Positions 4,135 to 63,665 of a stretch of DNA of 64,000 nt are shown here, in pieces. A program made the translations under genes and the position numbers. The notes under the pieces are model-generated. The model saw nothing but the letters and a program-made list of their open reading frames with translations, was not told where the DNA came from and did no database searches. This DNA comes from a virus. Location of the stretch: positions 288,001 to 352,000 of IMG/VR virus record IMGVR_UViG_3300028840_006907; one strand, 5' to 3'. Position 1 is the first letter of the stretch. Every line of letters starts with the position of its first letter.

Positions 4135-4315
4135 GTTTGAAAGATGGTTTTTAAAACGGCTTTGTAGAAAGATAGTGACACAGGGTGATCATAAGAGGCG
4201 TATTATTGAACATTATAAAATATTAATGGAAGCTGCAAAAGAAGAATTTACAGAAGAAAATAAGTATGGTCTTGATAGTTTCATGCAAGAATGTTTTGAA
4301 AAAGCACTTAAATAG
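4127..4315 (+). CDS. hypothetical small protein
   Basis: ORF track 4115 (TTG); ATG at 4127 overlaps upstream stop by 8 nt. Confidence 0.4.
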   Translation: MNRFERWFLKRLCRKIVTQGDHKRRIIEHYKILMEAAKEEFTEENKYGLDSFMQECFEKALK

Positions 4316-4335
4316 TAAAGGAAGATAATTGAAAT

Positions 4336-7320
4336 ATGGCAGAGCAATTAAAAGTTGGATGGGTCGGATATGGGGGTAATAGTTGGATGGCTGAGGATCT
4401 TCGGCCAGTTATAGAAAAGCTAGGAATGACTTTATTCACGATTCATGAACATGATAACGCAGATATTAAATGGGAAAAGGATAACTGGTTCAATCATTTA
4501 AAAAAAGCTGATATAGTTATAGCTCCAGCTAATTATAAAAAACAACCTGCAAAGAGTGCAAATCGATTAATACAATCAATGTCAATGGGTAAACCTGTCA
4601 TATGTTCTCCTTTACCTGCATATTTAGATGTGGCTAAAAAACATCCTGGTTCATTTCTTCTAGCTGATGTCCCGGAAGAATGGGAGGAATGTTTAAAATT
4701 GCTTAGAGATAATCCTTCTTTTCGTAAACAGATGAGTGAGAAGGCTCTAGAAGCTGTTGAAGATTTTTCGATAAATGTCATAGGAAATAAGTGGCTAGAA
4801 TTATTAGAGAAAGATGTACCAATAAAAAAAGATACTGAATCGAATAAAGTTCTTATTACAGATATAATCATACCTACATATAAAAATCTTCGTGGCTTGA
4901 AGTTATGTATTGAGAGTATTCTGGAGTGTACGTTAGTGCCGTACAATATTATAATTGTAAATAATGGAACTGATGAGGAATTGCATAACTATTGTTCTCA
5001 ATTGGTAAATGTAACTTACATAAAAAAAGACAGACTTAATTTTGCCCAAGCCATGAATGTCGGGATTAAAGCAGGTGATTCTGATTTAGTCGTTCTATTA
5101 AATGATGATGTTATTGTCAGTAAAGGATGGCTTATGAATTTGAAATATGCCTGTACTGAAGATGTGGGTGCAGTAGGACCTTTAAGTAATTGTGATAAAT
5201 CCTGGCTCCATAATCATGATATCAATATTGGTGGAGTAGAATTACTGCCTGGTTCAAATACTTTTGAACAAATTGAGCCTATTATTTCTCAGATATATAA
5301 TTATGAATCTCCTTTTTTAGAAGAACCTGAACGAAAATGGGTTGCATTTTATGCTACTTTAATTCCTCGGTCAGTAATAGAAGAAGTAGGTTTTTTAGAT
5401 GAGTCCTTTACAAATTCGGGAGAGGATGTTGATTATTGTAACAGGATTATGAAGTTAGGGTATAAAATAAAACAGACCTATAAAAGTTTTGTATTTCATT
5501 TCGGAGCTGTAAGTAGGAAATTACTGGAGCAGGAAGATAAGGGCACTTATCAGAAAGCTGATGAGGAGACTCAAGAATATTTAAAGATCAAGTATTCAAA
5601 ACCAACAGTAATAATCTATTCCGGTGCCAGTTGGGAGAGATGGAGTTATAAGTCTCTTGAACAGGGGGGTATTGGTGGTAGTGAAGTTTGGCAGATAAAT
5701 GTTTGTCGTGAGTTAAATAAATTGGGTTATAGAGTAATCAGTTTTAATGATTCCCCGGAAAAGGAAATGTGGGAAGATGGGATTCAATATCTTCATTATG
5801 GAGAATTTTCGAAATGGTGTGATGGTAACTATGCCGATTACGCAATTATAAGTAGAACAACCGATCCTTTACATCATCCTTTAAGAGCTGGAAAAATATT
5901 TATAATGGTTCACGATGTCTGGTTACTTTCTGCTAGAGATCAATTATTCCTTGATAAAGTAGATAAATTTTGTGTACTTAGTAAATGGCATTGGGATTTT
6001 TTTAAAGGTCACCATGGAATCCAAGATGAATCAAAATTGGCGTTGACTTCTAATGGGATAGATTTTAATCGTTATGATAACAAAAATATTGAAAGACATC
6101 CTTATAAAATGTTTTACAGTTCTTCCCCGGATCGAGGTCTTGATACACTCCTTTACCTATTTCCCTTTATTAAGGAAAAAATTCCAGAACTTGAACTCCA
6201 TATTTATTATGGATTTAACAATTGGGAAAAGGCAGTGAAGATGAGAAAAAACCAGATTGAGATAGATAGAATGAATAAAATAAAAAAGGATATGGAACAA
6301 CCTGGGGTATTTTATCATGGCCGAGTTGGTCAGAAGGAGCTAGCTGAAGCGCAATTAGAATGTTCTCTTTGGGCCTATCCGACGGATTTTGAAGAAGTTT
6401 TTTGCATCACTGCTATTGAGGCTCAAAGAGCCAGAATCCCTGTATTAGCAACGAATTACGCTGCTTTACAGACAACAGTAGGTGACTCAGGAATTCTAAT
6501 AGGAAATGGCATGAAAGGAGAATCTTATACACGAGATTATCGATTAAAATTTGTAGATGAGTGTATAAAAGTTTTAACAGATAAAGAATATAGAGAACAC
6601 TGGATTGAGAAAGGTTTAAAAAATACGGAGAAATATTCTTGGGAACAAGTGGCTAAAAATTGGAAGAAATTGTTTGAAAAAAGTGATCAAAAAGTAGAAG
6701 CAAAAATTATAGATGAAAAAGAATACAAGAAAGATCGAGTGCTAGTTCATGAAATGAAAATAAGTTCTAATTATATGCCAGATCCTCACAGCCATTTAAA
6801 TAATGAGAGAGATCGTTTTCATTATTATAAAACACTTAATGCTTTCGTTTCATCAAATTCATGTAGTGCATTGGATGTGGGTTGTTTTGATGGGTGGATT
6901 GATTTTCTTCTTATAGAACAAGGATTTAAATTAACTGGAGTTGAGTTGATGGAACCTCTTGTTCAAGCTGCTCGAAAATATGCAGAAGTTAAACAACTTG
7001 ATTATACAATTTATCAGGGTTTTTTTGAAGAGATTGAGATAGACCAGAAATTTGATTTAGTGATATGTTTGGAGACTTTGGAACATATTGATTTAAAACT
7101 TGTCCCTGAGTATATACAAAAAATGAAAAGTCTTGCTACAAAGGGTCTTTTCATATCACTCCCGGATCAGAAACATGAAGATAATACCCAGCATTTATGG
7201 ACACCTACTGAAAATTTAATAAGAAAAATGTGGGGTAATAAAAAGAATTTTTCATTGGAATACCATACTTATCAGGATTCAAATTTACCCGCTAATTGGT
7301 TAATTTATTTCGAAGTGTAG
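4336..7320 (+). CDS. 994-aa multidomain glycosyltransferase / methyltransferase fusion
   Basis: Four segments. ~4336-4830: GT-B C-terminal-half-like. ~4858-5536: GT2 (IIIPTYKN, LLNDDVIVSKGW, GEDVDYCNR). ~5608-6676: GT4/GT1 (GGIGGSEVW, EVFCITAIEAQRARIPVLATN). ~6825-7320: class I SAM methyltransferase (ALDVGCFDGW, LVICLETLEHI). Confidence 0.85.
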   Translation: MAEQLKVGWVGYGGNSWMAEDLRPVIEKLGMTLFTIHEHDNADIKWEKDNWFNHLKKADIVIAPANYKKQPAKSANRLIQSMSMGKPVICSPLPAYLDVAKKHPGSFLLADVPEEWEECLKLLRDNPSFRKQMSEKALEAVEDFSINVIGNKWLELLEKDVPIKKDTESNKVLITDIIIPTYKNLRGLKLCIESILECTLVPYNIIIVNNGTDEELHNYCSQLVNVTYIKKDRLNFAQAMNVGIKAGDSDLVVLLNDDVIVSKGWLMNLKYACTEDVGAVGPLSNCDKSWLHNHDINIGGVELLPGSNTFEQIEPIISQIYNYESPFLEEPERKWVAFYATLIPRSVIEEVGFLDESFTNSGEDVDYCNRIMKLGYKIKQTYKSFVFHFGAVSRKLLEQEDKGTYQKADEETQEYLKIKYSKPTVIIYSGASWERWSYKSLEQGGIGGSEVWQINVCRELNKLGYRVISFNDSPEKEMWEDGIQYLHYGEFSKWCDGNYADYAIISRTTDPLHHPLRAGKIFIMVHDVWLLSARDQLFLDKVDKFCVLSKWHWDFFKGHHGIQDESKLALTSNGIDFNRYDNKNIERHPYKMFYSSSPDRGLDTLLYLFPFIKEKIPELELHIYYGFNNWEKAVKMRKNQIEIDRMNKIKKDMEQPGVFYHGRVGQKELAEAQLECSLWAYPTDFEEVFCITAIEAQRARIPVLATNYAALQTTVGDSGILIGNGMKGESYTRDYRLKFVDECIKVLTDKEYREHWIEKGLKNTEKYSWEQVAKNWKKLFEKSDQKVEAKIIDEKEYKKDRVLVHEMKISSNYMPDPHSHLNNERDRFHYYKTLNAFVSSNSCSALDVGCFDGWIDFLLIEQGFKLTGVELMEPLVQAARKYAEVKQLDYTIYQGFFEEIEIDQKFDLVICLETLEHIDLKLVPEYIQKMKSLATKGLFISLPDQKHEDNTQHLWTPTENLIRKMWGNKKNFSLEYHTYQDSNLPANWLIYFEV

Positions 7321-25482: not shown

Positions 25483-25567
25483 GTGGCCAGCCCCGCGTAG
25501 GCGGGGAAAAGGGATACGATAAGAAAAAATCTGCTCTGTGGAACAGCCCCACGAAAGTGGGGAATAA
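25483..25567 (-). CRISPR. two-repeat mini-array / solitary CRISPR-repeat-like hairpins (reverse orientation)
   Basis: Minus-strand copies CTTTTCCCCGCCTACGCGGGGCTGGCCAC (25483-25511) and TTATTCCCCACTTTCGTGGGGCTGTTCCA (25539-25567) match the repeat of the 51.4-kb array; 27-nt intervening sequence; sits between convergent genes. Confidence 0.55.
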
Positions 25568-30656: not shown

Positions 30657-31513
30657 TATATTTCCCTTTGGTTAAAGTTTGGTGTATAAAATTGTTGAAT
30701 CGCTTTATAATCATGTGGTAAAAAGTATTTCTTTATCCATGTATATGTAGGCATTCTATTGTAGATATTTTGATCATGAGTTTTTATGAATAATTTATGA
30801 GGAGGAAGTACTTTACAACATAAAATAGCACAGAAAGAATCGCACCCAACATAATAACCTGCGTATTTTGACAGGGCTATTATTGAAGTTAAAGGAATGT
30901 CTTTTGGGGCTATGAAATGATTTAAAGTAGGTGCAACAGGTGTGTCTGAAATAATGAGAACCTTTAAGCCAGTCTTTATTGACAGGTTATTTATAAATTC
31001 CCAATCATCATTATTGATAACCGCTATATCACTTCGTGGTCTTGAAGAGGTTGGATAGTGCATTAAGATATATTTAAAAGGTTCTATTTTTAATCCATTC
31101 CAATCAATATCATCAACACTAGCGCTCATTAAAAATGATGACCCTTGAAAAGTTCTATTGGTATCCATTATCATTGGTACCATGTCTACGGGACGTACAT
31201 CATCTTCAGGTTTTATATTAAGTAATTCTTTTCCTATTGTGTAATCAGGTTCGATGTCAGATCTAAAATGCCAGAAGGTATCTTTTATCGGGCTAGATTG
31301 AAAGGTCCTTCTCATATTTTTTCTACCTACTTCTTCATCTATGAAGTGATGCTTTTTTACTCTGTAATAGATATTATGATCAATTATAGGAGCTATGCAT
31401 TTCCCAAATCTGCATGGCCAGTATATTTCAGTTATAGATTCTCTTTCTTTTTGAGTCATTAAAGCATCGATACACATCATATCTCCGATGCCGACAGAGA
31501 AGTAAATTTTCAT
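30656..31513 (-). CDS. putative GT-B (GT9-like) glycosyltransferase, GIGD family, copy 1
   Basis: N-terminal IYFSVGIGDMMC and C-terminal YVGCDSFCAILC loosely resemble heptosyltransferase motifs; tentative. Confidence 0.35.
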   Translation of the reverse strand: MKIYFSVGIGDMMCIDALMTQKERESITEIYWPCRFGKCIAPIIDHNIYYRVKKHHFIDEEVGRKNMRRTFQSSPIKDTFWHFRSDIEPDYTIGKELLNIKPEDDVRPVDMVPMIMDTNRTFQGSSFLMSASVDDIDWNGLKIEPFKYILMHYPTSSRPRSDIAVINNDDWEFINNLSIKTGLKVLIISDTPVAPTLNHFIAPKDIPLTSIIALSKYAGYYVGCDSFCAILCCKVLPPHKLFIKTHDQNIYNRMPTYTWIKKYFLPHDYKAIQQFYTPNFNQREI

Positions 31514-40011: not shown

Positions 40012-41475
40012 ATGGTAACAGAGTTTACAAAAGGCAAAAATCAAAAATTTGTAGCAACTATATCCTTCAGTCTTAATTGGGATGATAGAGATATTAAATC
40101 TATTAAGATAAAAGAGGGTCAGGAACTTTTCTATGATGGTGAAGTAGCTACTGTAGAAAATGGTGCTGGACAAGTAAAAGGTCGGTGTATGGGGTTAAAA
40201 TCAGCCATTAATGTTATGAATTGGTTGGTTCCTGTGGAAAATGGGGGGTCTTCAAAAACTCCTGAAGTACCAAAAATAGTTAGTGATAGTTTATTTGAGA
40301 ATGATGATTATAAACCAGGAATAGGTGGAAATCTTGACACTTATATCGAACGAACTAATGAAATTGGTGGGAAACGAGAAATTATCAAGGAAGAAGATTT
40401 GATTGTTAAAACTGTCTCACCTATTAATAAGAGAGAAGAGCAACCTAAGAAAGGAAAATTGGAAATAGCAGGAGATCAAGTTGAAGTCCCTAAAGACCGC
40501 CTTTTAGTAAGTAGTACCACTATAAGAACAAAGTCGAGTAAAAGAGATGTCACAATAACCAGAGCTGATGAAATGGGAGCTGATTCGGTACAACCTCTTA
40601 AAAAGGTTAAAGGAACAACTGCTAAAAAAGAAAAGAAAAAAAGTTTTACAGTTGATGATACTACTCCAAGACAAATTCATGAAGATATGAAATTGGATGA
40701 GATCCATCGTATCACTAAAGTTGTAAATGCTGATGAGTCTCAAGATGCTAAAGTTGTAAAGAAAATCGATAGATCTAAAGTAGAAGTCAAAGAAATTGAG
40801 GGAGTTACATTAAAGAGAACCGATTCTCCAAAAGATGTTAAGTTTAATAAAACAACTTCTCCTACTGAAGTTTCTATAAAAACTACTGTTGGTTCTGGAA
40901 GTAATTATTCCGCAGGAGATCAAGGTGGTGTGGTTGTAGGTAGATCTAAAGTTGCTAAAACTGGAGTTGAGAAAAAAGGTCAAGATTTAATTGATGATAT
41001 TTTTGAGGAAGCTCCAGTAATTACTGAAGAGGAAAAACAAAAACAAGCTAAAAAATTAGCTGAGAGAACAAAAAAAGCCCAAGAACGAGCGGCCAGCAGG
41101 AAAAAAAGTTCTAAAGAAACACAGAAAATGATGGAAAAGGAGAAAGAAGTTCAGAATGTAGAAGTTGAAATCCCTGCTGATAAGGCACCTGATCTTATTG
41201 AAGAAGTAAAAGCAGATGATTTAACAAAAATTACATCAGTGGAAATAGATGGTGATTTAACTGAAATAACTTCTGTAAAAGAAGATACTGTTGATTATCT
41301 ATTAATGTTGCCCGATAATTGGAACAAACTACATTGGGTAAAGAAGGAAAAATTTATAAAAGAAGTAACAGATGCTTCCTTTATAAGGTTTATTCTTTCT
41401 ATGGAAATAACCAAAGCAGTCAGAAATGCTTGTTTAGAAAGGTTAGAAGAACTTGGACAGAAAGAGTCAGGCTAA
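40012..41475 (+). CDS. Lys/Glu-rich hypothetical protein
   Basis: ATG 40012 (track GTG 39997); long charged low-complexity middle, e.g. KQKQAKKLAERTKKAQERAASRKK. Confidence 0.5.
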   Translation: MVTEFTKGKNQKFVATISFSLNWDDRDIKSIKIKEGQELFYDGEVATVENGAGQVKGRCMGLKSAINVMNWLVPVENGGSSKTPEVPKIVSDSLFENDDYKPGIGGNLDTYIERTNEIGGKREIIKEEDLIVKTVSPINKREEQPKKGKLEIAGDQVEVPKDRLLVSSTTIRTKSSKRDVTITRADEMGADSVQPLKKVKGTTAKKEKKKSFTVDDTTPRQIHEDMKLDEIHRITKVVNADESQDAKVVKKIDRSKVEVKEIEGVTLKRTDSPKDVKFNKTTSPTEVSIKTTVGSGSNYSAGDQGGVVVGRSKVAKTGVEKKGQDLIDDIFEEAPVITEEEKQKQAKKLAERTKKAQERAASRKKSSKETQKMMEKEKEVQNVEVEIPADKAPDLIEEVKADDLTKITSVEIDGDLTEITSVKEDTVDYLLMLPDNWNKLHWVKKEKFIKEVTDASFIRFILSMEITKAVRNACLERLEELGQKESG

Positions 41476-43231
41476 ACGAATACTTGCGAATGTTGTCGAT
41501 TTTGATATGCATAACCTTTTTCCTCCACGAACCTTTATGGAGAATCTGGAAGATGCATCATCAGGAGAGTTTACATCTCAGCCTCAAAAAACTCTTAGGG
41601 AACGCCCTTATGGTACTCAACCATTAATGGTAACCCCTAAGTATGAGGGTGATTTCCTGAAAAAGTTACGGAAACCCGAACTAGAAGGCAAACCTGTAAT
41701 GCCTTTGGAAAATGTCGTGAATGTTTATGCTGCAAATCCAAATAATTTATGGGATTTCAGTATGCCTTCTGAATGGTTAAAACATCAGGAACGGCCTTTT
41801 CCCCGTAACCTCGTGGATCTCTATTATGAAACAAATAGGCCAGGTGAGGGTGTTGGAGAAAAAACTCTTGATGAATACCATGATCGGGGTTGGGATGCAG
41901 ATGATGCTCCTGAAATGTCAGAAGACAAACCTATTCGTAGAGGACCTTTTCCTGGGAAACCTTTAAAAGTTCCTTTTCATTCGGCATCAAAAAGAGTGGT
42001 GGCGTCATATTTATCTGAGTTTACGGAAAAAGATGAATGTTGTGGACCGAATGTAGGGATAGTTGTAGCATCATATTTAATGAATTGTGTTCCTTCTGAA
42101 TTTATTGTTAATTTTGAAAATATTAAAACCGCTATGTTATTAGAGGGGTTAGAAGAAAGTCGGATTGATAGTAAAACAAAAGGACTTCATAAATTAGAGA
42201 CTGGGGATGTGGTTGTAAGACCTTATAGAAATAGCCCTAAACAGGGTAAATGGATTTTTAAAACATTCTCAGGTCCAAGACCACCTGCAGCAATAGAGTG
42301 GCCTTATACTACAACTTTTGAGTTTATACCACATGGAAGAGAAAAACGAGTAAATAAACTTCATGTAAGAACGAGTTGCACTTGTCCTTCCTGGCTTTTT
42401 TGGGGTGCTCAATATAATGCTACTATGCAGGATTATAGGTATGGTCCTATAAGACCTAAGTTTGCTCCTCCTGACAAAAGAGATAAAAGGCGTAAGTTTT
42501 TAGCCTGTAAACATATCATAGCTTGTATTCCATATTTAGTTGGAACAGGACAACGTGGTAAATTTACCGATGAAGGTTTTTCTCTTCATATGATTGATGT
42601 TCCTGTAGAAAAGAGAAAACGGATCATAAAAGCTCCTAAATTTCAAATAATGAAAAAGGCTCCGATAGAAGAGTTAAGAATACCCCAGGAATTAATGAAA
42701 GCAGGTAAGAAGCCTGAAGTAAGATCTATTGTTTCTGAGTGGAAAACTGCTACTCCGCGTTTAAGAAAATCCATGTTGAAAAAGTTGGATGATGTTCAGG
42801 ATGTCTCTTACATAGCTCATAGGTTTCCTGAATCAGCTACTCATTTAGTTGCTGAGAGATTGAAGGAAATTGGTGATAAGACAAAACAGATGGATGTCAA
42901 GAAAGATGCGGTGGAGGAAATAAAAGTAATAGAGAAGATTGAGGATAAAGTTGAAAAAGCTCTTCCAGAAGTTCCGGCTGAATTGAGTCATTTTGAAGAT
43001 GATGAGAAGATCCAAAATTTATTAAAGGACATTAAAGAAACTCCTGGTTGGGAAAGAAAAAGTACACTTTTGAAGGAACAGGATGATGCTGATGCTCTTG
43101 CATATATGGCAATAGCTTTATATCGAGAGGATTTTGATGAAAGTGTTAATATTATCCTTGAAAAATTAAGTGATATGGTTAAGGAAAAGGGTGATCCAAA
43201 AGCCAAGAAATGGTCGGAGTATATTTATTAA
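41453..43231 (+). CDS. SWIM zinc-finger-containing protein
   Basis: SCTCPSW ... FLACKHIIAC fits the CxC-x(n)-CxH SWIM pattern. Confidence 0.6.
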   Translation: MDRKSQAKRILANVVDFDMHNLFPPRTFMENLEDASSGEFTSQPQKTLRERPYGTQPLMVTPKYEGDFLKKLRKPELEGKPVMPLENVVNVYAANPNNLWDFSMPSEWLKHQERPFPRNLVDLYYETNRPGEGVGEKTLDEYHDRGWDADDAPEMSEDKPIRRGPFPGKPLKVPFHSASKRVVASYLSEFTEKDECCGPNVGIVVASYLMNCVPSEFIVNFENIKTAMLLEGLEESRIDSKTKGLHKLETGDVVVRPYRNSPKQGKWIFKTFSGPRPPAAIEWPYTTTFEFIPHGREKRVNKLHVRTSCTCPSWLFWGAQYNATMQDYRYGPIRPKFAPPDKRDKRRKFLACKHIIACIPYLVGTGQRGKFTDEGFSLHMIDVPVEKRKRIIKAPKFQIMKKAPIEELRIPQELMKAGKKPEVRSIVSEWKTATPRLRKSMLKKLDDVQDVSYIAHRFPESATHLVAERLKEIGDKTKQMDVKKDAVEEIKVIEKIEDKVEKALPEVPAELSHFEDDEKIQNLLKDIKETPGWERKSTLLKEQDDADALAYMAIALYREDFDESVNIILEKLSDMVKEKGDPKAKKWSEYIY

Positions 43232-50823: not shown

Positions 50824-51252
50824 ATGAGCAATATGAAAATTGCAATAGCTTCTTATATGCGTTATACAGTTGTTTTAGCCAACTTGAAAGAGCATTTCAA
50901 AAGAGAACTCGATCTAGCTGGCCTATTTGATAAAGACTCCGATTATAATGGAATGATAGGTAACGCTGTTATGGACCTGTGTAAAGTCTTCTCTGATCAG
51001 GGCCATAGCGGGTTCTCCGCGAACTGGGTTCTGAAATTGTTCGATACTCTTGGTCACTATAAAACGTTGACTCCTATTACAGATAATCCGAAAGAGTGGA
51101 TGAAGGTTACAGATGGCCTCGGTAGAGATGAACCGGTCTGGCAGAGTAATCGAAATCCTTCCCTTTTTTCTAATAATGGTGGAAAGAGTTATTATGATGT
51201 AGACGATAAGAAGCGTAAGAAGATCCGCTCTAAAAAGTTTAAAAAGAAATAA
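50824..51252 (+). CDS. hypothetical protein
   Basis: ATG 50824 follows upstream stop (track start 50788 overlaps); basic C-terminal tail. Confidence 0.5.
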   Translation: MSNMKIAIASYMRYTVVLANLKEHFKRELDLAGLFDKDSDYNGMIGNAVMDLCKVFSDQGHSGFSANWVLKLFDTLGHYKTLTPITDNPKEWMKVTDGLGRDEPVWQSNRNPSLFSNNGGKSYYDVDDKKRKKIRSKKFKKK

Positions 51253-51414
51253 TTTTTCTGAATAAATCAGGTTTTTTTCTTATTCTTTCGATAATTTCTC
51301 TTCTCTTTTTTCTCATAATTTATTATAATTATATATAGTATCTATAGCTCTTTGAAATTGGTAGAAATTTACTGAATCCGTAAGCCCTTGATCTTATGAT
51401 ATTTATGTTTTAGT
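51253..51414 (+). promoter_or_regulatory. AT-rich CRISPR leader-like region
   Basis: 162-bp gene-free AT-rich segment immediately 5' of the first repeat in the I-E repeat orientation; possible TTGATC(51388)-17 nt-TAGTAT(51411) promoter, weak. Confidence 0.45.
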
Positions 51415-52313
51415 ATATTCCCCGCGTATGCGGGGCTGGGCCGATAAATCTTAAAATGGGTAAGATAAAAACCTGAATATTCCCCGCCCATGCGGGGCTG
51501 ATGCGTAATATAAATAATTTTTGATCAATTATAGGACATATTCCCCGCCCCTGCGGGGATTCCCCGAAAATATTGATGTTTTTTTGTATATATCAAAAAT
51601 ATTCCCCGCCCCTGCGGGGTTGATGCGAATACCGAACAAGTGCAGGGCCTGCAGATTATATATTCCCCGCGTATGCGGGGCTGGCGCGTAGGAGGTAAAA
51701 ATGAAATCGAAACATATTCCCCGCGTATGCGGGGCTGGTTCTAGAATTGAATGAAGCGCTGAATTTTCCCCGCCCATGCGGGGCTGAACCGACCGGGAAA
51801 TCATATCTATCCATAAATCTTGCATATTCCCCGCGTATGCGGGGCTGAACCGATACTAGATTGGGACATGTGTTTACCCAGAACATATTCCCCGCCCATG
51901 CGGGGCTGAACCGATTTCAAAAAACACGACCAGATAAAGATGAATATTCCCCGCGTATGCGGGGCTGTGTCAGGGTGAGAGGCTCGTGACGAATAATTTT
52001 TCATATTCCCCGACTCTTCGGGGTTGCCCCTCAGGAAGCTATTGAATTGCAAAAAACTGTATTCCCCGTCTATGCGGGGCTGTCTCTCCACATGCAAATG
52101 TAAGTAGTAAATACTGAATATTCCCCGGCATTCCGGGGCTGATCCCGTCTGGTAAAAACATAAAATGGTTCATCATAAGTATTCCCCGCCCATGCGAGGT
52201 TGGGCCATCCAGTACTGCTACTGCTAGGACCGTATTCCCCGCCCATGCGGGGCTGATCCTACGACTGGGACAGAAGTATTCATTGGTTTCACCCCGGCCT
52301 TTCCGGGGTCTAA
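51415..52313 (+). CRISPR. type I-E-like CRISPR array, 16 repeats, no adjacent cas genes
   Basis: Best repeats ATATTCCCCGCGTATGCGGGGCTGAACCG at 51824 and 51885 (51763 differs slightly). The TTCCCC anchor recurs at 51418, 51480, 51541, 51602, 51663, 51717, 51766, 51827, 51888, 51947, 52006, 52062, 52121, 52182 and 52235, plus a degenerate copy near 52288. Unique intervening sequences. Confidence 0.85.
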
Positions 52314-52316
52314 AAT

Positions 52317-52355
52317 AAGGATCTGAGATTTTTTTCTTAGATCCTTATATTTTTA
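52317..52355 (+). terminator. rho-independent terminator immediately after the array
   Basis: AAGGATCTGAG (52317-52327) pairs with CTTAGATCCTT (52336-52346) with one G-U; 8-nt loop; T-rich tail. Confidence 0.65.
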
Positions 52356-52409: not shown

Positions 52410-53315
52410 ATGGCAATTGCGTTTATGAGAGGAAGCACCACTAATCAGAATGATTTGACCATAACGGTACGTGATACATCCAATAATTTGATCGACCCGT
52501 ATTCGTTGGAGTATGCTGTCTTCGATTACACTAGTGGCACTGAGGTCCTCATCGGATCCCCTGTTAATACTCCGCTCAAGTTGTCAACAGGAGAATATTG
52601 GGCGGAGGTTGTAATAGCAGCCGATGCCAATATAGGTCTCTGGCGCATCCGTTGGACAATTCAAGAAACAGCAGTCAGTCCTGTTTATCAATCGGTTCAG
52701 GAATTTCAAGTAGTAGGTTCCAGTGTTGTGACGAGTGTAACCGGAGATGCAAATTTTGATGCATTGGTCCATTCTTTACGAGTGATACTCCGAGACAACA
52801 ATCCGGACCGCAACTACAGATTTCGTCCCCCAGCTTCCGAGAAATTTATCCAAGGTCAGACCCAAGTCTTTGGATTCATTTGGGAAGATGAAGAGCTTGT
52901 AGAGTATATATACATGGCTATTGACGACTTCAATTCACGCCCCCCGACTACAGGTATAGATGTGGCCAATCTTTGGGGAACTGAGAGACGGTGGAGAACT
53001 ACAATTATTTTAAGAGCAGCAGCTTTTGCATGTTTCGCTATAACAATGAATTGGATCGCTGACGAATTTTCTTATTCAATTTCTGGAGTATCTCTTGACA
53101 TTGAGAAATCTTCGAAGTATCAATCTATGAAAGAGAATTATATCAATGAATATGACAAGCTTGTCGAGGCCAATAAGAGATCCATAAAAATTATAAAAGG
53201 TCTTAGGCAATATCGGTACGGGGTGGGCATCACGAGCGCCCTGGGACCCATGAACAGACCTGGAGTTCAAAGTAGAAGAAACCTTATAAGTCCAAGTTAT
53301 GGCCCTTATTTCTAA
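52410..53315 (+). CDS. hypothetical protein (possible virion protein)
   Basis: 301-aa ORF; visibly less AT-rich than its surroundings; no motif recognised. Confidence 0.5.
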   Translation: MAIAFMRGSTTNQNDLTITVRDTSNNLIDPYSLEYAVFDYTSGTEVLIGSPVNTPLKLSTGEYWAEVVIAADANIGLWRIRWTIQETAVSPVYQSVQEFQVVGSSVVTSVTGDANFDALVHSLRVILRDNNPDRNYRFRPPASEKFIQGQTQVFGFIWEDEELVEYIYMAIDDFNSRPPTTGIDVANLWGTERRWRTTIILRAAAFACFAITMNWIADEFSYSISGVSLDIEKSSKYQSMKENYINEYDKLVEANKRSIKIIKGLRQYRYGVGITSALGPMNRPGVQSRRNLISPSYGPYF

Positions 53316-53408: not shown

Positions 53409-55859
53409 TTATATTTTATTATTTTTTCTAAGGAGAGCTATCTGACGTTTAATCCATCGAGGAGTTTCTTCAAGAGTTTCAGCCATTTGATTTCTTGTCA
53501 TCTTTCCACGATTATCTATTATGAATTGGAGCTTTTCTTCAGTCTTTCTATCTTTGGTACAACCAATAGGGTTTTTTGTAGATAATGTACCTTTTTTTTG
53601 TAAGAATTTTATTTGAGATTTAACCCATCGCTCTGTTTCATTGAGAGCTTTAGATAATTCTTTTTTAGTTTTATTTTTATAATTAGTGATTATATACTGC
53701 GTTTTTTCAGGGGTTCTTCTACATTTTGTTGAGAATTTAGAAATCTCTTTTAAATAGGTAAATTTCTCAGTGGGTTGTTTAATATTTATATCTTCAATAC
53801 ATTTTGAATTATATATTTCTTTTTCTCTTTTAGGATAAGGTTTAGTAACATAATTTTTTAATTTGTTAATTTTTTTCTTATCTCTTTTATTTTCACCTAT
53901 TAATAAGACATATTTATGTTTTCTTTCAGTAATAAATTTTTGAGCTTCAGATAATATATTTTTATTCCAATTATTCCATTGAACTTTAATTCCTTCTGGT
54001 ATGGTACTCATATTTTTAAAACCATTTTCTTTAAACCATTCCTTTTGAGAAATAATCCCTTGATTTTTACACCATTTTTTAAATGCTGATGTACGTTTTA
54101 GAGATTGAGCTGAAAAAGTCCTATTATTTTTAATGGAAGGATGTTTATATAAGTATGAACTTCCAAAGTTATTTCCTAGATAATCAAATCCACAAGCTTG
54201 GTAAATAGTCCCTATTTCAAGAGCTTTAGGATCAGCATAACCTATGAAAGCTCTTTTAGAAGTGTTATTAGCCATCCAATTACAAGCAAACCTTATAAGA
54301 CGGCTACCCAGGTTTTTCGGGGTCCATGAGGCAGTGGCACCTCTTTGAATTAAAGCTTCATATTTGGGAGTATCTTTACCTAGAATTTTGGAATATGCTG
54401 TGGGTTCATTTATAAATAATACTCCTGCGAGAATATTATTGTATCTGGCTGTGAAGCACCATTTTGGTATTACTCCAATTGTTCCTAACCATTCATATTT
54501 TTTTATAAATTGGACCATTTCATTATTAAATTTTTCTTCAGATAATGTAAAAGAAGTAGCTTTTAAAGAAGAGTGATTGAAATCGATATTTTTTTTATCT
54601 TCATCAATCCATTGAAGTTTCTTTTTATATTGGTGGCATATAAAAGTGGTCTTGTTTTTACTGTTAATTTTATTTTTTATTAAATCAATGATAATACCTT
54701 TTCGGATAGCTTCTTTTACATCATCAGACCAAAATCTAATCAAATTGGGTATATTTTTATTTTGGATTTCATCATTCTTAATATTTTCTTTTATTTTTAA
54801 TGCCCTTGGAGACGTATCATTTTCTCTTATTTCTTTACCATGCCAATAATTACCATCATATTGTACCCATAAGTTATAGCGAGGCATATAGAAATCAATT
54901 ACATGTTTAATAATTGGGTGCATAACTTGATGTTCTACAAAAGGATCAAATACAATAAGATAATTAAAAAAGTTATTTTCTTCATCTGAGGATGAGAAGG
55001 AATTATTTAGTTTAACTGTTTTATATGTTTTTTCTTTTATTTCAACATTCTGTTGGGGATTTTCAACGCCATATCTTTCAATATTAGTTTCAGTGATTTT
55101 TTTCTTAATCTCTGGAGATTGGAATACATTGTCAACCCCGTATCTTGATTGTACTGTTACTTTAACTTTTCTTTTTACTTCTTTAGATTGAGAGGGGTAT
55201 TCTACTCCTCGTTTTTCAATATTAGATTGACGGGATTTTTCTTTCATTGAGTTTAGTTGAGTAGAATATTCTACGCCATAACGTTTTTTAATAGTTTCGT
55301 TATTATGTTTAACTATATCTTCATTTATTTTATCTCGATTCCTTCTTAATCCTAGTTTAATAGCTCTTTCTCGGATGGCTTTCCAGGTCCTGTTTTCAAA
55401 GTAGAGCATAATAAATTCCATAGAATTCTTTTCATATACTTCTTTTAAAAGATCATCTTCTTTGGGTGACCAGAAGTCTTCCCTAGCAGGAGCGCTTTTA
55501 CCACCATCAATCATTTCTTGTTTAATTATTTCAGGATTTCTTTGAAGGTTTAATTTTTGAGCATTACTTCGGATGCTTTGCCATGATCGATTCTTGAATT
55601 TAGAAAGGATAAATTCTTTTGAATTATTTTCATATATATTTTTAAGAATATTTATCTCTTCGGTTGTCCAGGAATCTTTTCTTGGTCCTCTTTTTTTACG
55701 GTCTTCATTTATAAGGTCAGGATTACGGTGAAGATTTAGCTTACGTGCTTTTCTACAGATGGTTGTCCAAGATTTATTTAATTTGGAGATAATAAATTCT
55801 TTTGAATTATTTTTATATATTTCTTTTAATAAATTTTCTTCTTCTATTTTCCAACGCAT
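53409..55859 (-). CDS. free-standing homing-endonuclease-like mosaic protein (Myb/SANT x3, HNH-associated repeats, PD-(D/E)xK-like core, Mom/GNAT-like domain, C-terminal HTH repeats)
   Basis: ATG 55859 with RBS aagagg (track start 55916 less likely). Three W-x2-EE-x2-L...Y...W...I repeats. Four (R/K)(Y/R)GVExxxQ repeats. VIDFYMPRYNLWVQYDGNYWHG. NLGSRLIRF...FIGYADPKALEIGTIYQACGFDYLG. Confidence 0.65.
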   Translation of the reverse strand: MRWKIEEENLLKEIYKNNSKEFIISKLNKSWTTICRKARKLNLHRNPDLINEDRKKRGPRKDSWTTEEINILKNIYENNSKEFILSKFKNRSWQSIRSNAQKLNLQRNPEIIKQEMIDGGKSAPAREDFWSPKEDDLLKEVYEKNSMEFIMLYFENRTWKAIRERAIKLGLRRNRDKINEDIVKHNNETIKKRYGVEYSTQLNSMKEKSRQSNIEKRGVEYPSQSKEVKRKVKVTVQSRYGVDNVFQSPEIKKKITETNIERYGVENPQQNVEIKEKTYKTVKLNNSFSSSDEENNFFNYLIVFDPFVEHQVMHPIIKHVIDFYMPRYNLWVQYDGNYWHGKEIRENDTSPRALKIKENIKNDEIQNKNIPNLIRFWSDDVKEAIRKGIIIDLIKNKINSKNKTTFICHQYKKKLQWIDEDKKNIDFNHSSLKATSFTLSEEKFNNEMVQFIKKYEWLGTIGVIPKWCFTARYNNILAGVLFINEPTAYSKILGKDTPKYEALIQRGATASWTPKNLGSRLIRFACNWMANNTSKRAFIGYADPKALEIGTIYQACGFDYLGNNFGSSYLYKHPSIKNNRTFSAQSLKRTSAFKKWCKNQGIISQKEWFKENGFKNMSTIPEGIKVQWNNWNKNILSEAQKFITERKHKYVLLIGENKRDKKKINKLKNYVTKPYPKREKEIYNSKCIEDINIKQPTEKFTYLKEISKFSTKCRRTPEKTQYIITNYKNKTKKELSKALNETERWVKSQIKFLQKKGTLSTKNPIGCTKDRKTEEKLQFIIDNRGKMTRNQMAETLEETPRWIKRQIALLRKNNKI

Positions 55860-55962
55860 ATGAGTACCTCTTTTTAGTATATTACTTATTATAACAGGTA
55901 TTAGAGTTATTGTCAATATTTCATTTAATAAATATGGAATTCATTAATTTATAGGGAAAAAG

Positions 55963-59978: not shown

Positions 59979-62900
59979 ATGGCTCAAGTAGAAAGAAAAT
60001 GGATCCAGGACCAAGCAATTTCCAATGAAAAAGTAGATCCCACTGATATTTATACCATTACAGGTTTAAGAGTTGATGAAACCAATGCCATTGGGAGAGT
60101 AGGAATAGGTTTATCTAGCCCTTTGGATGCTCTTCATATTCAACGAACTGATTCTTCTTCTGGAATGATGCTGGATCTTAGTGATGGTACAAATGGTAAA
60201 CTTTATAAGATATATTCAGGAGCTAATGGTTTACTGAATTTTACTGATGCTACAGATGGGGGCATATTCACCTATGGTGAATCAGGTTCGATAGGTCGAG
60301 TTGGTATCAATACCGCATCTATCCAAGATCACCTTCATGTAAGTTCCCCTTTAACAGATGCTGCGTTAAGACTTGATTTAGATGATGGACTCAATGGTCG
60401 AGCTTATCGTCTTGTCTCAGATACAGATGGAGCTTTTAGGATAATTGATGTTGATGCGGGTAATGTAAATAGACTTCAGATTGCTAATACAGGAACTTTA
60501 ACTGTCTCAGGTGATGCAACTTTTGATAGTAATTTTCAAATTAATGGTACTGTTACAGTTATTAATACTGAAATTGTCATTGCAGATCAATTAGAAATAA
60601 ATCAAACTGACAATCAGGCAGCATTGATAGTAAGTCAAGATACAGGTGGTGCTACAGCCACTGTAATGAGAATTGAAAATGCTGGCACAGGCCATGCTTT
60701 AACCGTAGATTCTGGTAATGTAGGTATTGGTACTTTAACTCCGGCTGCTCCTCTTCATGTTCAAGGTGATATAATTACTGCCAATGGGTATAATATCGGA
60801 GACACCACTCATAGAATTGGTACTCTTTGGATGGCTTCTACTGTAGATTATTTGACTGACCTTAATTTTAGTTCAGGTGGAACAAATGTTACTTTTGCAA
60901 CCGGTGGAAATGTCGGGATAGGTTCTGGTACTCCTACCCAGGCCCTGGATGTGGTTGGAACTATAGAAAATACAGGTGATATCATAACAACTGGTTCTTA
61001 TCCTTCCGGTTTAATAAGAGGAGCTTATTTAACGATAACTACTGGAAATTCGACTTTCCAAGGAAGAGTGGGAATTGGTGTTACAAGTCCGTCTTATCCT
61101 CTTCATGTTGGTGGAGACATTTATTCCAATACAGGTAATATTGTAGCCACTGCTGGAACTGTGACAGGTGGATCTGGTTTAATAGCTACTACAGGTGGTG
61201 TTATAGCCTCTGCTGGAAATATAACAGCGACCTTGGGTGATCTCATCGCTTCTGCGGGTTCTGTAACTGCTAATACAAATGTAACTGCTACGAATGGAAA
61301 TATAGTTGCTTCTAATGGAAATATTTCTGCTACGAATGGTACAGTAACAGGAGGCACCGGTTTAATAGCTACCACAGGGGGTGTGACCGCTACGAATGGA
61401 AATATAGTTGCTTCTAATGGAAATATTTCTGCTACGAATGGTACAGTAACAGGAGGCACCGGTTTAATAGCTACCACAGGGGGTGTGACCGCTTTAGCTG
61501 GTAATATCTCTGCTTCGGCTGGTTCTGTAACTGCTAATACTAATATAACAGCCACGAATGGTAATATTGTTGCTTCTAATGGAAATATTTCTGCTACAAA
61601 TGGTACGGTAACAGGAGGCACCGGTTTAATAGCGACTACAGGTGGTGTAACCGCTACGGCTGGAAATATCACTGCTTCAAATGGTAGTTTTGTCGCTCCA
61701 AATGGAATTGTAAGTGTAGGTTTTGGCGTTATAGCAGCAGGGGGTGATATATTTGCCCAAACGGGTAAAGTAGGAATTTCAACCAGTTCTATTGCAGGAG
61801 GTTATGTATTACATGTTCAAGGAAACGCTTATTGTTCAGGTCAAGTAGATACAAATACTTTGGATGTAGGTAGTGGCAGTTTTACTGTAAGTGCAATTGG
61901 TGCAACAAATATCGGACCAGGCTGGTTAACTTTCGGTCAACATATGTCTGGTGGAGGACAGATTGGATCTGCTTCTACCGTAAATATTGTTTCAACCAGT
62001 GGTGCAACTATGTCAGGAGGTTCAGGCGCTGTCTCAATTACTACTAATAACAGTGGTACGCCAAGTGCGATTAATGTGACCTCTGGAAATAACACCGGAT
62101 CAGGAGTTGGTGGAGCACTCAATCTGAATGCAGGTGATTCGGGAGGAGCTGGTACAGGTGGTGCAGTAACTATTACTGGAGGAACGGCTTCAGGTGGTGG
62201 ATCTACAGGAGGAGACATTTTGCTGCTTCCTGGAAGTGCTGTCTCAAATGGGCGCGTTGAGGTAGGCACAGGTGCCTCTTCGAAAAATTTATGGGTTTCA
62301 GGTAGTGTAACTATAGAAGGAGCTAATTCTGCTTTTGCTCTTTCGATTAATAATACGAATTATGTAGGAGCTTATTGTGCAATAGCAGGAGCATCAACGG
62401 TAGCTGGCTGGTTTGAAAATAGTGGTTCAGATTCAACATCTATGTTTGTGCAACAATTAAATACTGGTAAAGGGCTTTTCGCTACTGGATTAGGATTAAA
62501 TTCTTTTGCAGGATTTTTCCAAAGTACGGGCTATACAACTCTTAGGTCAGAAGTGAGTGGTACTGGAGGTGGTGATTATGCTGTACATGCAATATGTACA
62601 AATGCTGGATCGAGTGCCACTTCAGCAGCAGTTTTTGCTCAAAATTGGGGAGGTGGAAAAGCTATTCAGGCAACCGCAGGAACTGGAACTACTATTCAAG
62701 GGTCAAACACTAATGGTACTGCTATTTATGGGTCTCAAGCAGGAACCTCTGGTAGAGCAGGACGTTTTAGGTGTAATGCTGGATCTTATGCATACAATGC
62801 TGTTGAGGTAGAAGTGACTTCAGGTACAGGAGCTTCAAAAGGGATCTTAGTTAATTATACCGGTTCTGGTAATGCTATAGAAGTAAACGGTGGTAGTGGC

Positions 62901-63665
62901 TATGGTATTGAAGCATACCAAAGTGCAGGAACAGTTTATCATGGGACTAATTCAGGAACTACAGGTAGAGCTGCTTTATTCGAAACTTCTAATACCAGTT
63001 TTAATGGTACTATAGTTGAAATAAGTAGTAATACAACATCACTGAATAATAATTGTTTAGTTTGCAATCATTCAGGTAGTGGTACAGGTCTTACTGTTAA
63101 CTCCAATGCAGCGGGTGCTAGTTTTGGTATTAACAGCTTTATGCCGGGTGTCTCTGGAACTGGAAGAGCTATTAATGGCTACTGTGTTTCAGCATCAGGA
63201 TTTGCCGGTTATTTTACTGGGAATGTACATATTGCGGGTACTCTTTCTAAAACTGCGGGTGGTTTTAAAATTGATCATCCAATTGAACCTGAGACAAAGA
63301 ATTTAGTTCATAGTTTTGTTGAAAGCCCTGAGATGAGGAATGTCTATTATGGACGGGCTGTGACTCATGATGGGACAGCATCTATAGGTCTTCCGGATTG
63401 GTGGGTTACATTAAATGGGTCTAATAAGGAAGAGTATAATTATAGTTTAACTACTATTGGTAAATACAGCAGATTATTTATTAGTAAAGAAATAGAGAAC
63501 AATCAATTTGAAGTCTCTTCATTGGATGGAGACTGTACTTTTTCCTGGACTATCTCAGCCATTCGCCATGATACTTATGCTGAGAGCAACAGAATACAAG
63601 TAGAAAAGAACAAAACACAAGAAGAAATAGATGATTATAAAAAAGAGCATGGCATTTCTGTCTAA
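59979..63665 (+). CDS. tail-fibre-like protein (1228 aa) with Gly/Thr/Asn/Ala-rich repeats
   Basis: RBS aaaggag; repeated VGIG...P...LHV motifs; 34-aa repeat ATNGNIVASNGNISATNGTVTGGTGLIATTGGVT x3; long beta-rich G/S/T/A core; conserved C-terminal FKIDHP...VESPEMRNVYYG module. Confidence 0.8.
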   Translation: MAQVERKWIQDQAISNEKVDPTDIYTITGLRVDETNAIGRVGIGLSSPLDALHIQRTDSSSGMMLDLSDGTNGKLYKIYSGANGLLNFTDATDGGIFTYGESGSIGRVGINTASIQDHLHVSSPLTDAALRLDLDDGLNGRAYRLVSDTDGAFRIIDVDAGNVNRLQIANTGTLTVSGDATFDSNFQINGTVTVINTEIVIADQLEINQTDNQAALIVSQDTGGATATVMRIENAGTGHALTVDSGNVGIGTLTPAAPLHVQGDIITANGYNIGDTTHRIGTLWMASTVDYLTDLNFSSGGTNVTFATGGNVGIGSGTPTQALDVVGTIENTGDIITTGSYPSGLIRGAYLTITTGNSTFQGRVGIGVTSPSYPLHVGGDIYSNTGNIVATAGTVTGGSGLIATTGGVIASAGNITATLGDLIASAGSVTANTNVTATNGNIVASNGNISATNGTVTGGTGLIATTGGVTATNGNIVASNGNISATNGTVTGGTGLIATTGGVTALAGNISASAGSVTANTNITATNGNIVASNGNISATNGTVTGGTGLIATTGGVTATAGNITASNGSFVAPNGIVSVGFGVIAAGGDIFAQTGKVGISTSSIAGGYVLHVQGNAYCSGQVDTNTLDVGSGSFTVSAIGATNIGPGWLTFGQHMSGGGQIGSASTVNIVSTSGATMSGGSGAVSITTNNSGTPSAINVTSGNNTGSGVGGALNLNAGDSGGAGTGGAVTITGGTASGGGSTGGDILLLPGSAVSNGRVEVGTGASSKNLWVSGSVTIEGANSAFALSINNTNYVGAYCAIAGASTVAGWFENSGSDSTSMFVQQLNTGKGLFATGLGLNSFAGFFQSTGYTTLRSEVSGTGGGDYAVHAICTNAGSSATSAAVFAQNWGGGKAIQATAGTGTTIQGSNTNGTAIYGSQAGTSGRAGRFRCNAGSYAYNAVEVEVTSGTGASKGILVNYTGSGNAIEVNGGSGYGIEAYQSAGTVYHGTNSGTTGRAALFETSNTSFNGTIVEISSNTTSLNNNCLVCNHSGSGTGLTVNSNAAGASFGINSFMPGVSGTGRAINGYCVSASGFAGYFTGNVHIAGTLSKTAGGFKIDHPIEPETKNLVHSFVESPEMRNVYYGRAVTHDGTASIGLPDWWVTLNGSNKEEYNYSLTTIGKYSRLFISKEIENNQFEVSSLDGDCTFSWTISAIRHDTYAESNRIQVEKNKTQEEIDDYKKEHGISV
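61287..61490 (+). repeat. perfect 102-bp in-frame tandem duplication inside the fibre gene
   Basis: 61287-61388 and 61389-61490 are identical at all 102 nt; a third copy at 61551-61652 differs at 9 positions, all synonymous. Confidence 0.9.

Follow-up and report, generated by a model that had tools for sequence, protein, structure and literature searches.

The window analysed here, 64,000 nucleotides (nt) of viral DNA at positions 288,001 to 352,000 of the IMG/VR record IMGVR_UViG_3300028840_006907, carries an array of 16 tandem units that resemble the CRISPR repeats of type I-E systems. The array has no CRISPR-associated (cas) genes nearby, adjoins an anti-defence gene and is an accessory element of a huge phage. 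The alignment of its units points to selection that has retained what Cas6e needs of a repeat and relaxed what a guide needs. We tentatively favour the reading that the array encodes a multi-hairpin RNA, comparable to the Racr and Cracr RNAs of other phages, which would compete for or regulate a type I-E system supplied in trans, that is, the Cas6e and Cascade of the host; its chances are put at somewhat below even. The preference arises because the array keeps the requirements of Cas6e, relaxes those of a guide, has an anti-defence gene as its neighbour and is accompanied by a related mini-array elsewhere in the window.

Anatomy of the array

All units lie on the + strand and take the form (A/G)TATTCCCCG-loop-CGGGGCTG between positions 51415 and 52315 (Table 1). 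The repeat search gave 15 copies in register, with start-to-start distances of 62, 61, 61, 61, 54, 49, 61, 61, 59, 59, 56, 59, 61 and 53 nt, and a degenerate sixteenth unit at 52287-52315 starts 55 nt after the fifteenth. This accounts for the sixteen GC-rich repeats listed in a preliminary description of the window, whose distances were reproduced except for the last one, given there as 53 nt, a difference of register only. If a 29-nt repeat is assumed, the spacers measure 33, 32, 32, 32, 25, 20, 32, 32, 30, 30, 27, 30, 32, 24 and 26 nt. The uniform 61-nt period of a type I-E array, with spacers of 32-33 nt, is thus found only in part: 7/15 periods are of 61-62 nt and the rest of 49-59 nt, in line with the earlier estimate of about half the units at the canonical period and spacers of 20-33 nt. 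The motif TTCCCCG-N6-CGGGG, allowing at most one mismatch, is matched 18 times in the window versus 0.02 times expected from 100 shuffles, and the GC content of the array (42-44%) stands above that of the window (~33%). The copy singled out in the preliminary description as the best one, ATATTCCCCGCGTATGCGGGGCTGAACCG, occurs exactly at 51824-51852 as unit 8; units 7 and 9 have the same AACCG tail but a CCAT loop.

Several traits of a type I-E array are present around these units, namely an AT-rich leader upstream, repeats in transcript orientation and a degenerate terminal repeat, which scores 19 bits with the covariance model versus 35-44 for the other units of the array. The leader-like region holds a weak hairpin and a T-run directly 3′ of the stop codon of the preceding gene, and a sigma-70-like site (TTCTCA-18-TATAGT, 51310-51339) that is a consensus match only. 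As the array is base-for-base identical in an independent contig of the Joint Genome Institute (JGI) and in a Logan assembly, it is not an assembly artefact. A coding repeat was rejected, given that no + strand open reading frame (ORF) runs through the array and that 3 does not divide its periods. On the minus strand it is crossed by ORFs of 76-98 amino acids (aa), of which JGI called one; these are artefacts that the array produces. A search against Rfam returned neither CRISPR-DR nor any other family, at gathering scores or at E<=10.

Type I-E identity of the repeat

By the evidence of their sequence, the array units are type I-E repeats and the array is derived from a type I-E CRISPR array, as the preliminary description had recognised. 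The repeats have the expected form of 28-29 nt with a GC-rich stem of 6-7 bp and a 4-nt loop at positions 6-21, and in the alignment of 18 units the hairpin is flanked by xTxTT before it and by the handle after it. A 23-nt core was scanned for in 185,579 species genomes and also in metagenomes. The exact core was recovered in regular 61-nt arrays of two metagenome-assembled genomes (MAGs), a Propionibacteriaceae MAG (GTATTCCCCGCATGTGCGGGGCTGATCC) and a Lactobacillus MAG (GTATTCCCCGCACATGCGGGGGTGATCC); four single matches also returned by the scan of species genomes are about what chance predicts. In the metagenomes, the repeat GTATTCCCCGCACACGCGGGGCTGAACCG was found on peat contigs of 33% GC directly after a Pfam-confirmed operon cas3-cse1-cse2-cas6e-cas7e-cas5e. 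Unit 8 is identical to this peat repeat (element L039) at 25/29 positions and unit 15 to the Propionibacteriaceae repeat at 25/28, with the differences of both comparisons confined to position 1 and the loop, and two more I-E loci without adjacent cas1/2 (L038 and L139) have related repeats. The preliminary description had named the lack of any host lineage with a matching I-E repeat or Cas6e, combined with a lack of spacer matches to mobile elements, as a result that would speak against it; to judge from these sequence matches, such lineages exist, and the core sits in arrays beside I-E cas operons.

The peat element has features of its own. Its I-E effector operon (L049-L054, L021, L037, L039) has no cas1/2 within 8 kb, and its arrays vary by sample, with spacers of 18-109 nt that have common 3′ ends; for instance, ...GATGCTATTGACTCTGTT occurs at three spacer lengths, 18, 64 and 109 nt. 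Such turnover looks driven by recombination rather than by Cas1-Cas2 acquisition. In the gap upstream of the peat cas3, a conserved mini-array of three degenerate units (TTCTTCCCCACGTATGCGGGGTGTTTCCA and two more; L049 5116-5281, the same in L050, L051 and L021) resembles regulatory elements of the CreR/CreA type, which are similar to CRISPR RNAs (crRNAs). To see whether the peat element might be viral, relatives of its Cas7e were sought in IMG/VR, and none was found. The L038 locus (4171-6780 of JACLAD010013624.1, 49% GC) likewise has no cas1/2 between cas6e and its array.

Constraint on the repeat

Change from the consensus, counted over the 15 good units, is distributed unevenly along the repeat. 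It reaches 5% in the 5′ flank, 3% in each stem arm and 11% in the CTG that follows the stem, compared with 28% in the loop and 41% in the last five nucleotides; flank, stem and CTG together have 15 changes in 300 (5%) versus 31/75 in the 5-nt tail (Fisher p=4e-14). Over 18 units, the 6-bp stem is 97% paired, with three compensatory cells (A-U, G-C) and one U.G pair that forms only in the + strand RNA. Three of the six stem changes are compensatory or wobble, and the others come down to a single G-to-A mismatch in unit 14. All eight changes of length fall outside the 24-nt core, which is intact in each of the eight shortened units (p ~0.02 if neutral). Moreover, position 28 of the repeat, which is position -2 of the handle, is a C in 15/15 units, from which it follows that the units keep a 29-nt register and that the spacers account for the changes of length. 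The same invariant C contradicts the idea that tails were lost through deletions across the tail and the start of the spacer.

The 5′ handle presents a different picture. Instead of an 8-nt handle conserved in every repeat, only units 1 and 7-9 fit CTGNNCCG, the handle of the nearest Cas-linked arrays, and units 13 and 15 have one of the CTGATCC type. The L038 locus was taken as the control for functional drift, being Cas-linked, without cas1/2 and with ~40 repeats, nearly all of which diverge in the loop and at positions 25-26. Even so, the CTG (97-100%), the CC at positions 27-28 (100%), G29 (86%) and a strict 61-nt period are retained there. In the phage array, C27 is found in 9/15 units and G29 in 8/15, versus 36/36 and 31/36 in the control. 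Tails other than CG go together with shorter periods and spacers (Mann-Whitney p=0.015). The canonical CTGAACCG repeats (units 7-9) are located in the middle of the array, away from the leader end, and there is thus no sign of ongoing acquisition. As read from the alignment, this pattern shows that selection has retained the portion of each repeat at which Cas6e binds and beside which it cuts (the 6-bp hairpin with TATT in front and CTG behind), as well as the C at handle position -2, and that the loop, the spacer length and the remaining handle positions have drifted. Such a retention of the hairpin with a relaxed handle and spacer length speaks against selection on most units as ordinary guides of Cascade.

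These data bear directly on the possibility that the locus is a non-functional relic, that is, a type I-E array captured from a host or another element that decays neutrally. Degenerate tails, irregular spacer lengths, mixed loops, the absence of the locus from related phages and the failure to find a target or a cas gene would all suit a relic. We nevertheless regard it as improbable, because the decay is strongly non-uniform: 15 consecutive hairpins are intact and their stem changes are mostly compensatory, no insertion or deletion is found in any 24-nt core, C28 does not vary, a second locus has the same hairpin with a different compensatory pair, and the array is identical in the JGI and Logan contigs compared.

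A second locus on the minus strand

Two further units, absent from the preliminary description, form a mini-array at 25483-25567 on the minus strand, in a gap between convergent genes at the 3′ end of a 14-kb minus-strand operon. They are 56 nt apart and score 34 bits each with the covariance model, and one of them (m1) carries a compensatory change of a G-C to an A-U stem pair. The m1 stem variant, CCCCAC/GTGGGG, is also seen in the repeat of the I-E locus L139. Small arrays occur elsewhere in IMG/VR too: contigs L003, L004, L006 and L007 have one I-E repeat GTTTCCCCGCACACGCGGGGCTGAACCG, a 32-nt spacer and a repeat with a degenerate tail (…GCGGGGCAAAAGAAAATG), and contig L001 has three repeats.

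With the covariance model, the 16-unit array and this 2-unit locus are the only hairpin loci in 108 kb. Hairpins scattered singly across intergenic regions in the manner of repetitive extragenic palindromes, an outcome that the preliminary description had set against its own proposal, were therefore rejected; a model built from the 18 units found no further copy in the window and 20 kb of flanking sequence. A related alternative is that the hairpins were exapted outside CRISPR, either as sites to which a phage RNA-binding protein or RNase binds or at which it processes the RNA, or as RNA stabilisers or terminators that punctuate phage transcripts. The second locus lies where terminators or stabilisers are expected, at the end of a long operon in a convergent gap, and GC-rich hairpins stand out in a genome of 33% GC. 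On the other hand, two loci in 108 kb do not make a general punctuation signal, the + strand hairpins have no T-runs, no Cas6-like gene was found nearby, and the units show features specific to type I-E, namely AACCG/GATCC tails, a 29-nt register and a 61-nt period, all of which makes this alternative very improbable. Both the relic and the non-CRISPR readings fit the constraint data and the I-E-specific register poorly.

Spacers, targets and cas genes

The 15 spacers of the array are unique, and their all-against-all similarity is no higher than that of shuffled sequences; the idea that they are variants of one target was rejected, as they align no better than shuffles. Structured or palindromic spacers, suspected by eye, were also rejected, with folding energies like those of shuffles (0/15 at p<=0.05); in the same test a true CRISPR array scored higher than the phage spacers. 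Their GC content, 34%, is the same as that of the phage. No target was detected by blastn in 50,697 GenBank phage records or in 72,556 PLSDB plasmids. Three scans of IMG/VR with spacers 7-9 gave one match, of spacer 7 in contig L055, which extends over 20/23 nt and then 4/9 in the distal part; it has no protospacer-adjacent motif (PAM) of the AAG type, about 0.2 such chance matches are expected per scan, and it is probably due to chance. Among the retrieved I-E loci, only 13 nt of spacer 10 found a match, inside the cse1 coding region of a Propionibacteriaceae MAG (65% GC), which was also judged a chance match. Within the genome of the phage itself, spacer 2 (51522-51536) has an exact PAM-distal match of 15 nt at 31377-31391 (+), inside a minus-strand ORF. 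With an E of 0.008 (one spacer in 568 kb) it counts as marginal, and it is probably fortuitous as well. Conversely, none of the 552 spacers of all retrieved I-E arrays targets the phage of the window.

The statement of the preliminary description that no cas gene is present in the 64 kb holds at the level of Pfam: no Cas family appeared in the Pfam results for essentially all ORFs of the window and of 10 kb beyond each end, 84 kb of a genome of 390-470 kb. A tblastn search with six Cas proteins of the L039 element (Cas3, Cse1, Cse2, Cas6e, Cas7e and Cas5e) gave no match near the array. Searches for homologues of the L039 Cas6e and Cas7e, of limited sensitivity, gave no cluster on a contig of 388-470 kb.

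These results bear on an ordinary orphan guide array, with which the phage would borrow the I-E Cascade and Cas3 of the host, or use distant cas genes of its own, in order to cut or silence competing phages or host genes, the irregular units being old and partly decayed. The leader, the canonical orientation of the repeats, the degenerate last repeat, the terminator and the 15 unique spacers are those of a guide array, as are eight spacers of 32-33 nt and three perfect CTGAACCG repeats. Huge phages commonly have compact arrays without cas1/2/4, often without effectors, and may use host Cas proteins (PMC7162821). The peat arrays that follow an I-E effector operon without cas1/2 are also irregular, with their spacers of 18-109 nt, and the cas survey spans only the 84 kb mentioned. 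Yet no convincing target was found in the phage records, the plasmids or IMG/VR, handle positions that are fixed in Cas-linked arrays are degenerate in 9/15 units, the short spacers accompany the non-CG tails, and the Cas6e/Cas7e searches with the system of the closest repeat led to no cluster on a contig of the size of the phage. An ordinary guide array appears rather unlikely, though it is the main alternative and a serious one.

The phage genome and the neighbours of the array

As the preliminary description supposed, the window is part of a phage, and a huge one: its genome is larger than 200 kb, roughly 390-470 kb. The window maps to Ga0180437_10000019, a contig of 388,651 bp from IMG metagenome 3300017963, and a JGI contig of 469,617 bp encodes a protein with 100% identity to the 592-aa ORF at 41453-43231, whose homologues are found on contigs of 163-590 kb. 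The preliminary description placed a membrane protein among the flanking genes of the array, and it is in this point that it has to be amended. The gene that ends 162 nt 5′ of the array belongs to the Tad3 family, both in our reading and in the JGI call (142 aa, the same Pfam match), Tad3 being a ThsB-binding anti-Thoeris protein that inhibits type I Thoeris (PMC13402655). Downstream there follow a protein conserved in huge phages (ORF301) and then an HNH/Mom-like fusion. ORF301 marks a widespread group of huge phages: IMG/VR contigs of up to 452 kb, with 33% to 68% GC, encode more than 110 homologues of it, at 40-74% identity.

The surroundings of the array were compared with those of related phages. 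In the relative L057, ORF301 is 81% and Tad3 63% identical, and there is no array at the syntenic site and no hairpin in 19 kb. Tad3 is conserved in the relatives L056 and L057 with a different gene order and no array, no homologous array was found in L056-L058, and in all 80 IMG/VR loci compared the sequence within 6 kb of the ORF301 homologue was free of I-E-like arrays. Because it is missing from the relatives, the array is a lineage-specific accessory insert.

Farther from the array, positions 1-39759 of the window hold a very large sugar-modification cluster that suggests the synthesis of a glycan of the nonulosonic-acid type. It encodes UDP-glucose dehydrogenase, epimerases/dehydratases, nucleotidyl- and cytidylyltransferases, a formyltransferase and a PIG-L deacetylase, together with a DegT aminotransferase, NeuB, a hexapeptide acetyltransferase, sulfotransferases, many methyl- and glycosyltransferases and a radical SAM enzyme. 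At the other end, a 1228-aa ORF is followed beyond the window (L046) by two more ORFs of >1100 aa, and the three of them look like fibre or surface proteins.

Table 1. Features of the window, with positions counted from its first nucleotide.
Feature	Position	Strand	Evidence or remark
Array of 16 repeats of 29 nt, with 15 unique spacers	51415..52315	+	Repeat search, alignment, covariance model
Repeat starts, units 1-8	51415, 51477, 51538, 51599, 51660, 51714, 51763, 51824	+	
Repeat starts, units 9-16	51885, 51944, 52003, 52059, 52118, 52179, 52232, 52287	+	
Units 7-9, alone in having the complete canonical I-E tail CTGAACCG; 32 nt each in spacers 7 and 8	51763..51913	+	
Degenerate terminal repeat TTTCACCCCGGCCTTTCCGGGGTCTAAAA, 5-nt loop, tail lost	52287..52315	+	Sequence; covariance model
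AT-rich leader-like region of 162 nt, from the Tad3 stop codon to repeat 1	51253..51414	+	Sequence read directly
Intrinsic-terminator-like hairpin of 14 pairs, then a T-rich tail	52315..52348	+	At the 3′ end of the array
Two-unit mini-array: TTATTCCCCACTTTCGTGGGGCTGTTCCA, 27-nt spacer, CTTTTCCCCGCCTACGCGGGGCTGGCCAC	25483..25567	-	Gap between convergent genes; covariance model
Tad3-family gene	50824..51252	+	Pfam PF25185, E=5e-33, 113.8 bits versus a cut-off of 27
ORF301, no family assignment	52410..53315	+	Directly downstream of the array
835-aa ORF with HNH/homing-endonuclease-like and D5-like regions, DUF7487 and a Mom-like DNA-modification domain	53409-55916	-	
1228-aa ORF with nested 21-, 81- and 102-nt tandem repeats at 61277-61686	59979-63665	+	No Pfam or PHROG match

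A proposed mode of action

In type I-E systems, the repeat hairpin is the binding site of Cas6e, which cleaves the RNA at the 3′ base of the hairpin and, as a single-turnover enzyme, does not leave its product; the 5′ handle is needed by Cas5e and Cas8e. A multi-hairpin RNA of the kind we favour would make use of this division. The array would probably be transcribed on the + strand from its own leader, with transcription stopping at the terminator of 52315-52348, and during infection the transcript would offer 16 Cas6e sites to a type I-E system present in trans, most likely that of the host. Cas6e would process the RNA at the hairpins and would be tied up by it, because this enzyme is single-turnover and remains on its product. 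Cas7 and Cascade would in turn be loaded with RNAs chosen by the phage, many of them with defective handles or short spacers, and the supply of functional host Cascade would presumably fall, as it does with the Racr RNA anti-CRISPRs and the Cracr arrays. Units with short spacers may serve as non-cleaving regulatory guides, and units 7-9, perhaps also 1-4 and 13, could still yield canonical crRNAs. In a bolder version, held with even more reserve, the array would be the largest multiplexed RNA anti-CRISPR yet seen, a 16-hairpin transcript within an anti-defence islet that sequesters Cas6e and loads Cascade with RNAs of defective handle or short spacer, some of them serving as regulatory guides without cleavage, and whose loop/stem variants, at least three in number, would cover several Cas6e variants of the hosts.

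Five spacers of 20-27 nt are in the range of the pseudo-spacers of published I-E Cracr arrays (21-24 nt), which is consistent with this proposal. Several points weigh against it. A mimicry of host repeats calls for a host or a cognate Cas6e, and neither was identified; no spacer matched the promoter regions of the retrieved I-E loci. The array moreover has traits of a working guide array, with seven periods of 61-62 nt, eight spacers of 32-33 nt, all 15 spacers unique and three perfect repeats. A pure sponge for Cas6e is too simple, since the invariant C at handle position -2 suggests that the handle still matters. The described Racrs are solitary (PMC10651486) and the described Cracr arrays have 2-3 spacers (bioRxiv 10.1101/2024.10.29.618823). 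Finally, the adjacency of Tad3 may be coincidental, given that this gene is also present in an array-less relative. Regarding function, the preliminary description had thought of a hijacked host Cascade directed against competitors, or else of an action in some other way; the pattern of kept hairpins and relaxed handles leads us to prefer the latter over the former.

Published precedents exist for RNA anti-CRISPRs, for viral crRNA-like arrays and for huge-phage arrays without cas genes. The RNA anti-CRISPRs and crRNA-like arrays known so far are single units or have 2-3 spacers, and most come from small phages of cultivated hosts. If the proposed reading is true, the strategy scales up to a 16-unit array in an uncultivated huge phage, which would provide a compact Cas6e substrate with multiple sites. 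The selection pattern would then amount to a mutational map, drawn by nature, of the features through which a type I-E repeat serves a phage: the hairpin, its TATT and CTG flanks and C(-2) are kept, and neither the spacer length nor the other handle positions are constrained. Should the array be no more than an orphan guide array, it would join a known class as a further example.

Comparison with known systems

Compared with chromosomal type I-E arrays (those of the E. coli type and those of Propionibacteriaceae, Lactobacillus, L038, L039 and L139), the phage array has the same 28-29-nt repeat with TTCCCCGC-loop-GCGGGG, the same (C/A)TGAACCG or GATCC tail and the same base period of 61 nt. It differs in having no adjacent cas genes, in that 7/15 periods are canonical, in the variable handle positions 25-27 and 29, and in the location of the canonical repeats, which are in the middle of the array and not at the leader end. 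Virus-borne mini-arrays have reportedly been described by Faure and co-workers and by Medvedeva and co-workers, both in 2019. The locus at 25483-25567 and the IMG/VR contigs L003, L004, L006 and L007 are similar to such mini-arrays, whereas the main phage array is far larger.

For the arrays of huge phages, the use of host Cas proteins, repression without cleavage and the silencing of host CRISPR have been proposed as roles (Al-Shayeb et al. 2020, PMC7162821), and all three are applicable to the present array. Like the cas-less arrays among them, the one reported here belongs to a phage genome >200 kb and has no cas1/2/4 and no nearby effector. In contrast, it has 16 repeats instead of a median of six, and shows heterogeneous repeats, degenerate handles and spacers of 20-33 nt, with no host of the same repeat and no spacer target identified (PMC7162821).

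A Racr needs no more than the hairpin and the RNA upstream of it, can do without the 5′ handle and gives rise to an aberrant Cas6-Cas7 complex, and RacrIE1/2 inhibit a type I-E system (Camara-Wilpert et al. 2023, PMC10651486). The array resembles them as a mimic of CRISPR repeats located on a phage outside a CRISPR-Cas locus (84 kb inspected), and as a neighbour of another anti-defence gene, in this case a Tad3 that the array-less relative also has. In both, the Cas6-binding hairpin is conserved and the handle is either dispensable (Racr) or degenerate (the array). The difference is one of organisation, as Racrs are solitary and here we find 16 tandem units with spacers, a leader, a terminator and a second locus of 2 units (PMC10651486).

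A further parallel is that of the Cracr arrays, built of degenerate repeats and spacers of 21-24 nt, which act as competitors for Cas proteins and as repressors of cas promoters; those of type I-E have 2-3 spacers and work alongside other anti-defence genes (Liu et al., bioRxiv 10.1101/2024.10.29.618823). Their definition rests on complementarity to cas promoters or to CreR/CreA, with a spacer of at least 9 PAM-proximal matches. The array shares with them its phage-borne and multiplexed nature. Short spacers and degenerate repeats recur in a part of it, with 5/15 spacers of 20-27 nt and 9/15 handles degenerate, and it differs in that it has 15 spacers, eight of them of full length (bioRxiv 10.1101/2024.10.29.618823).

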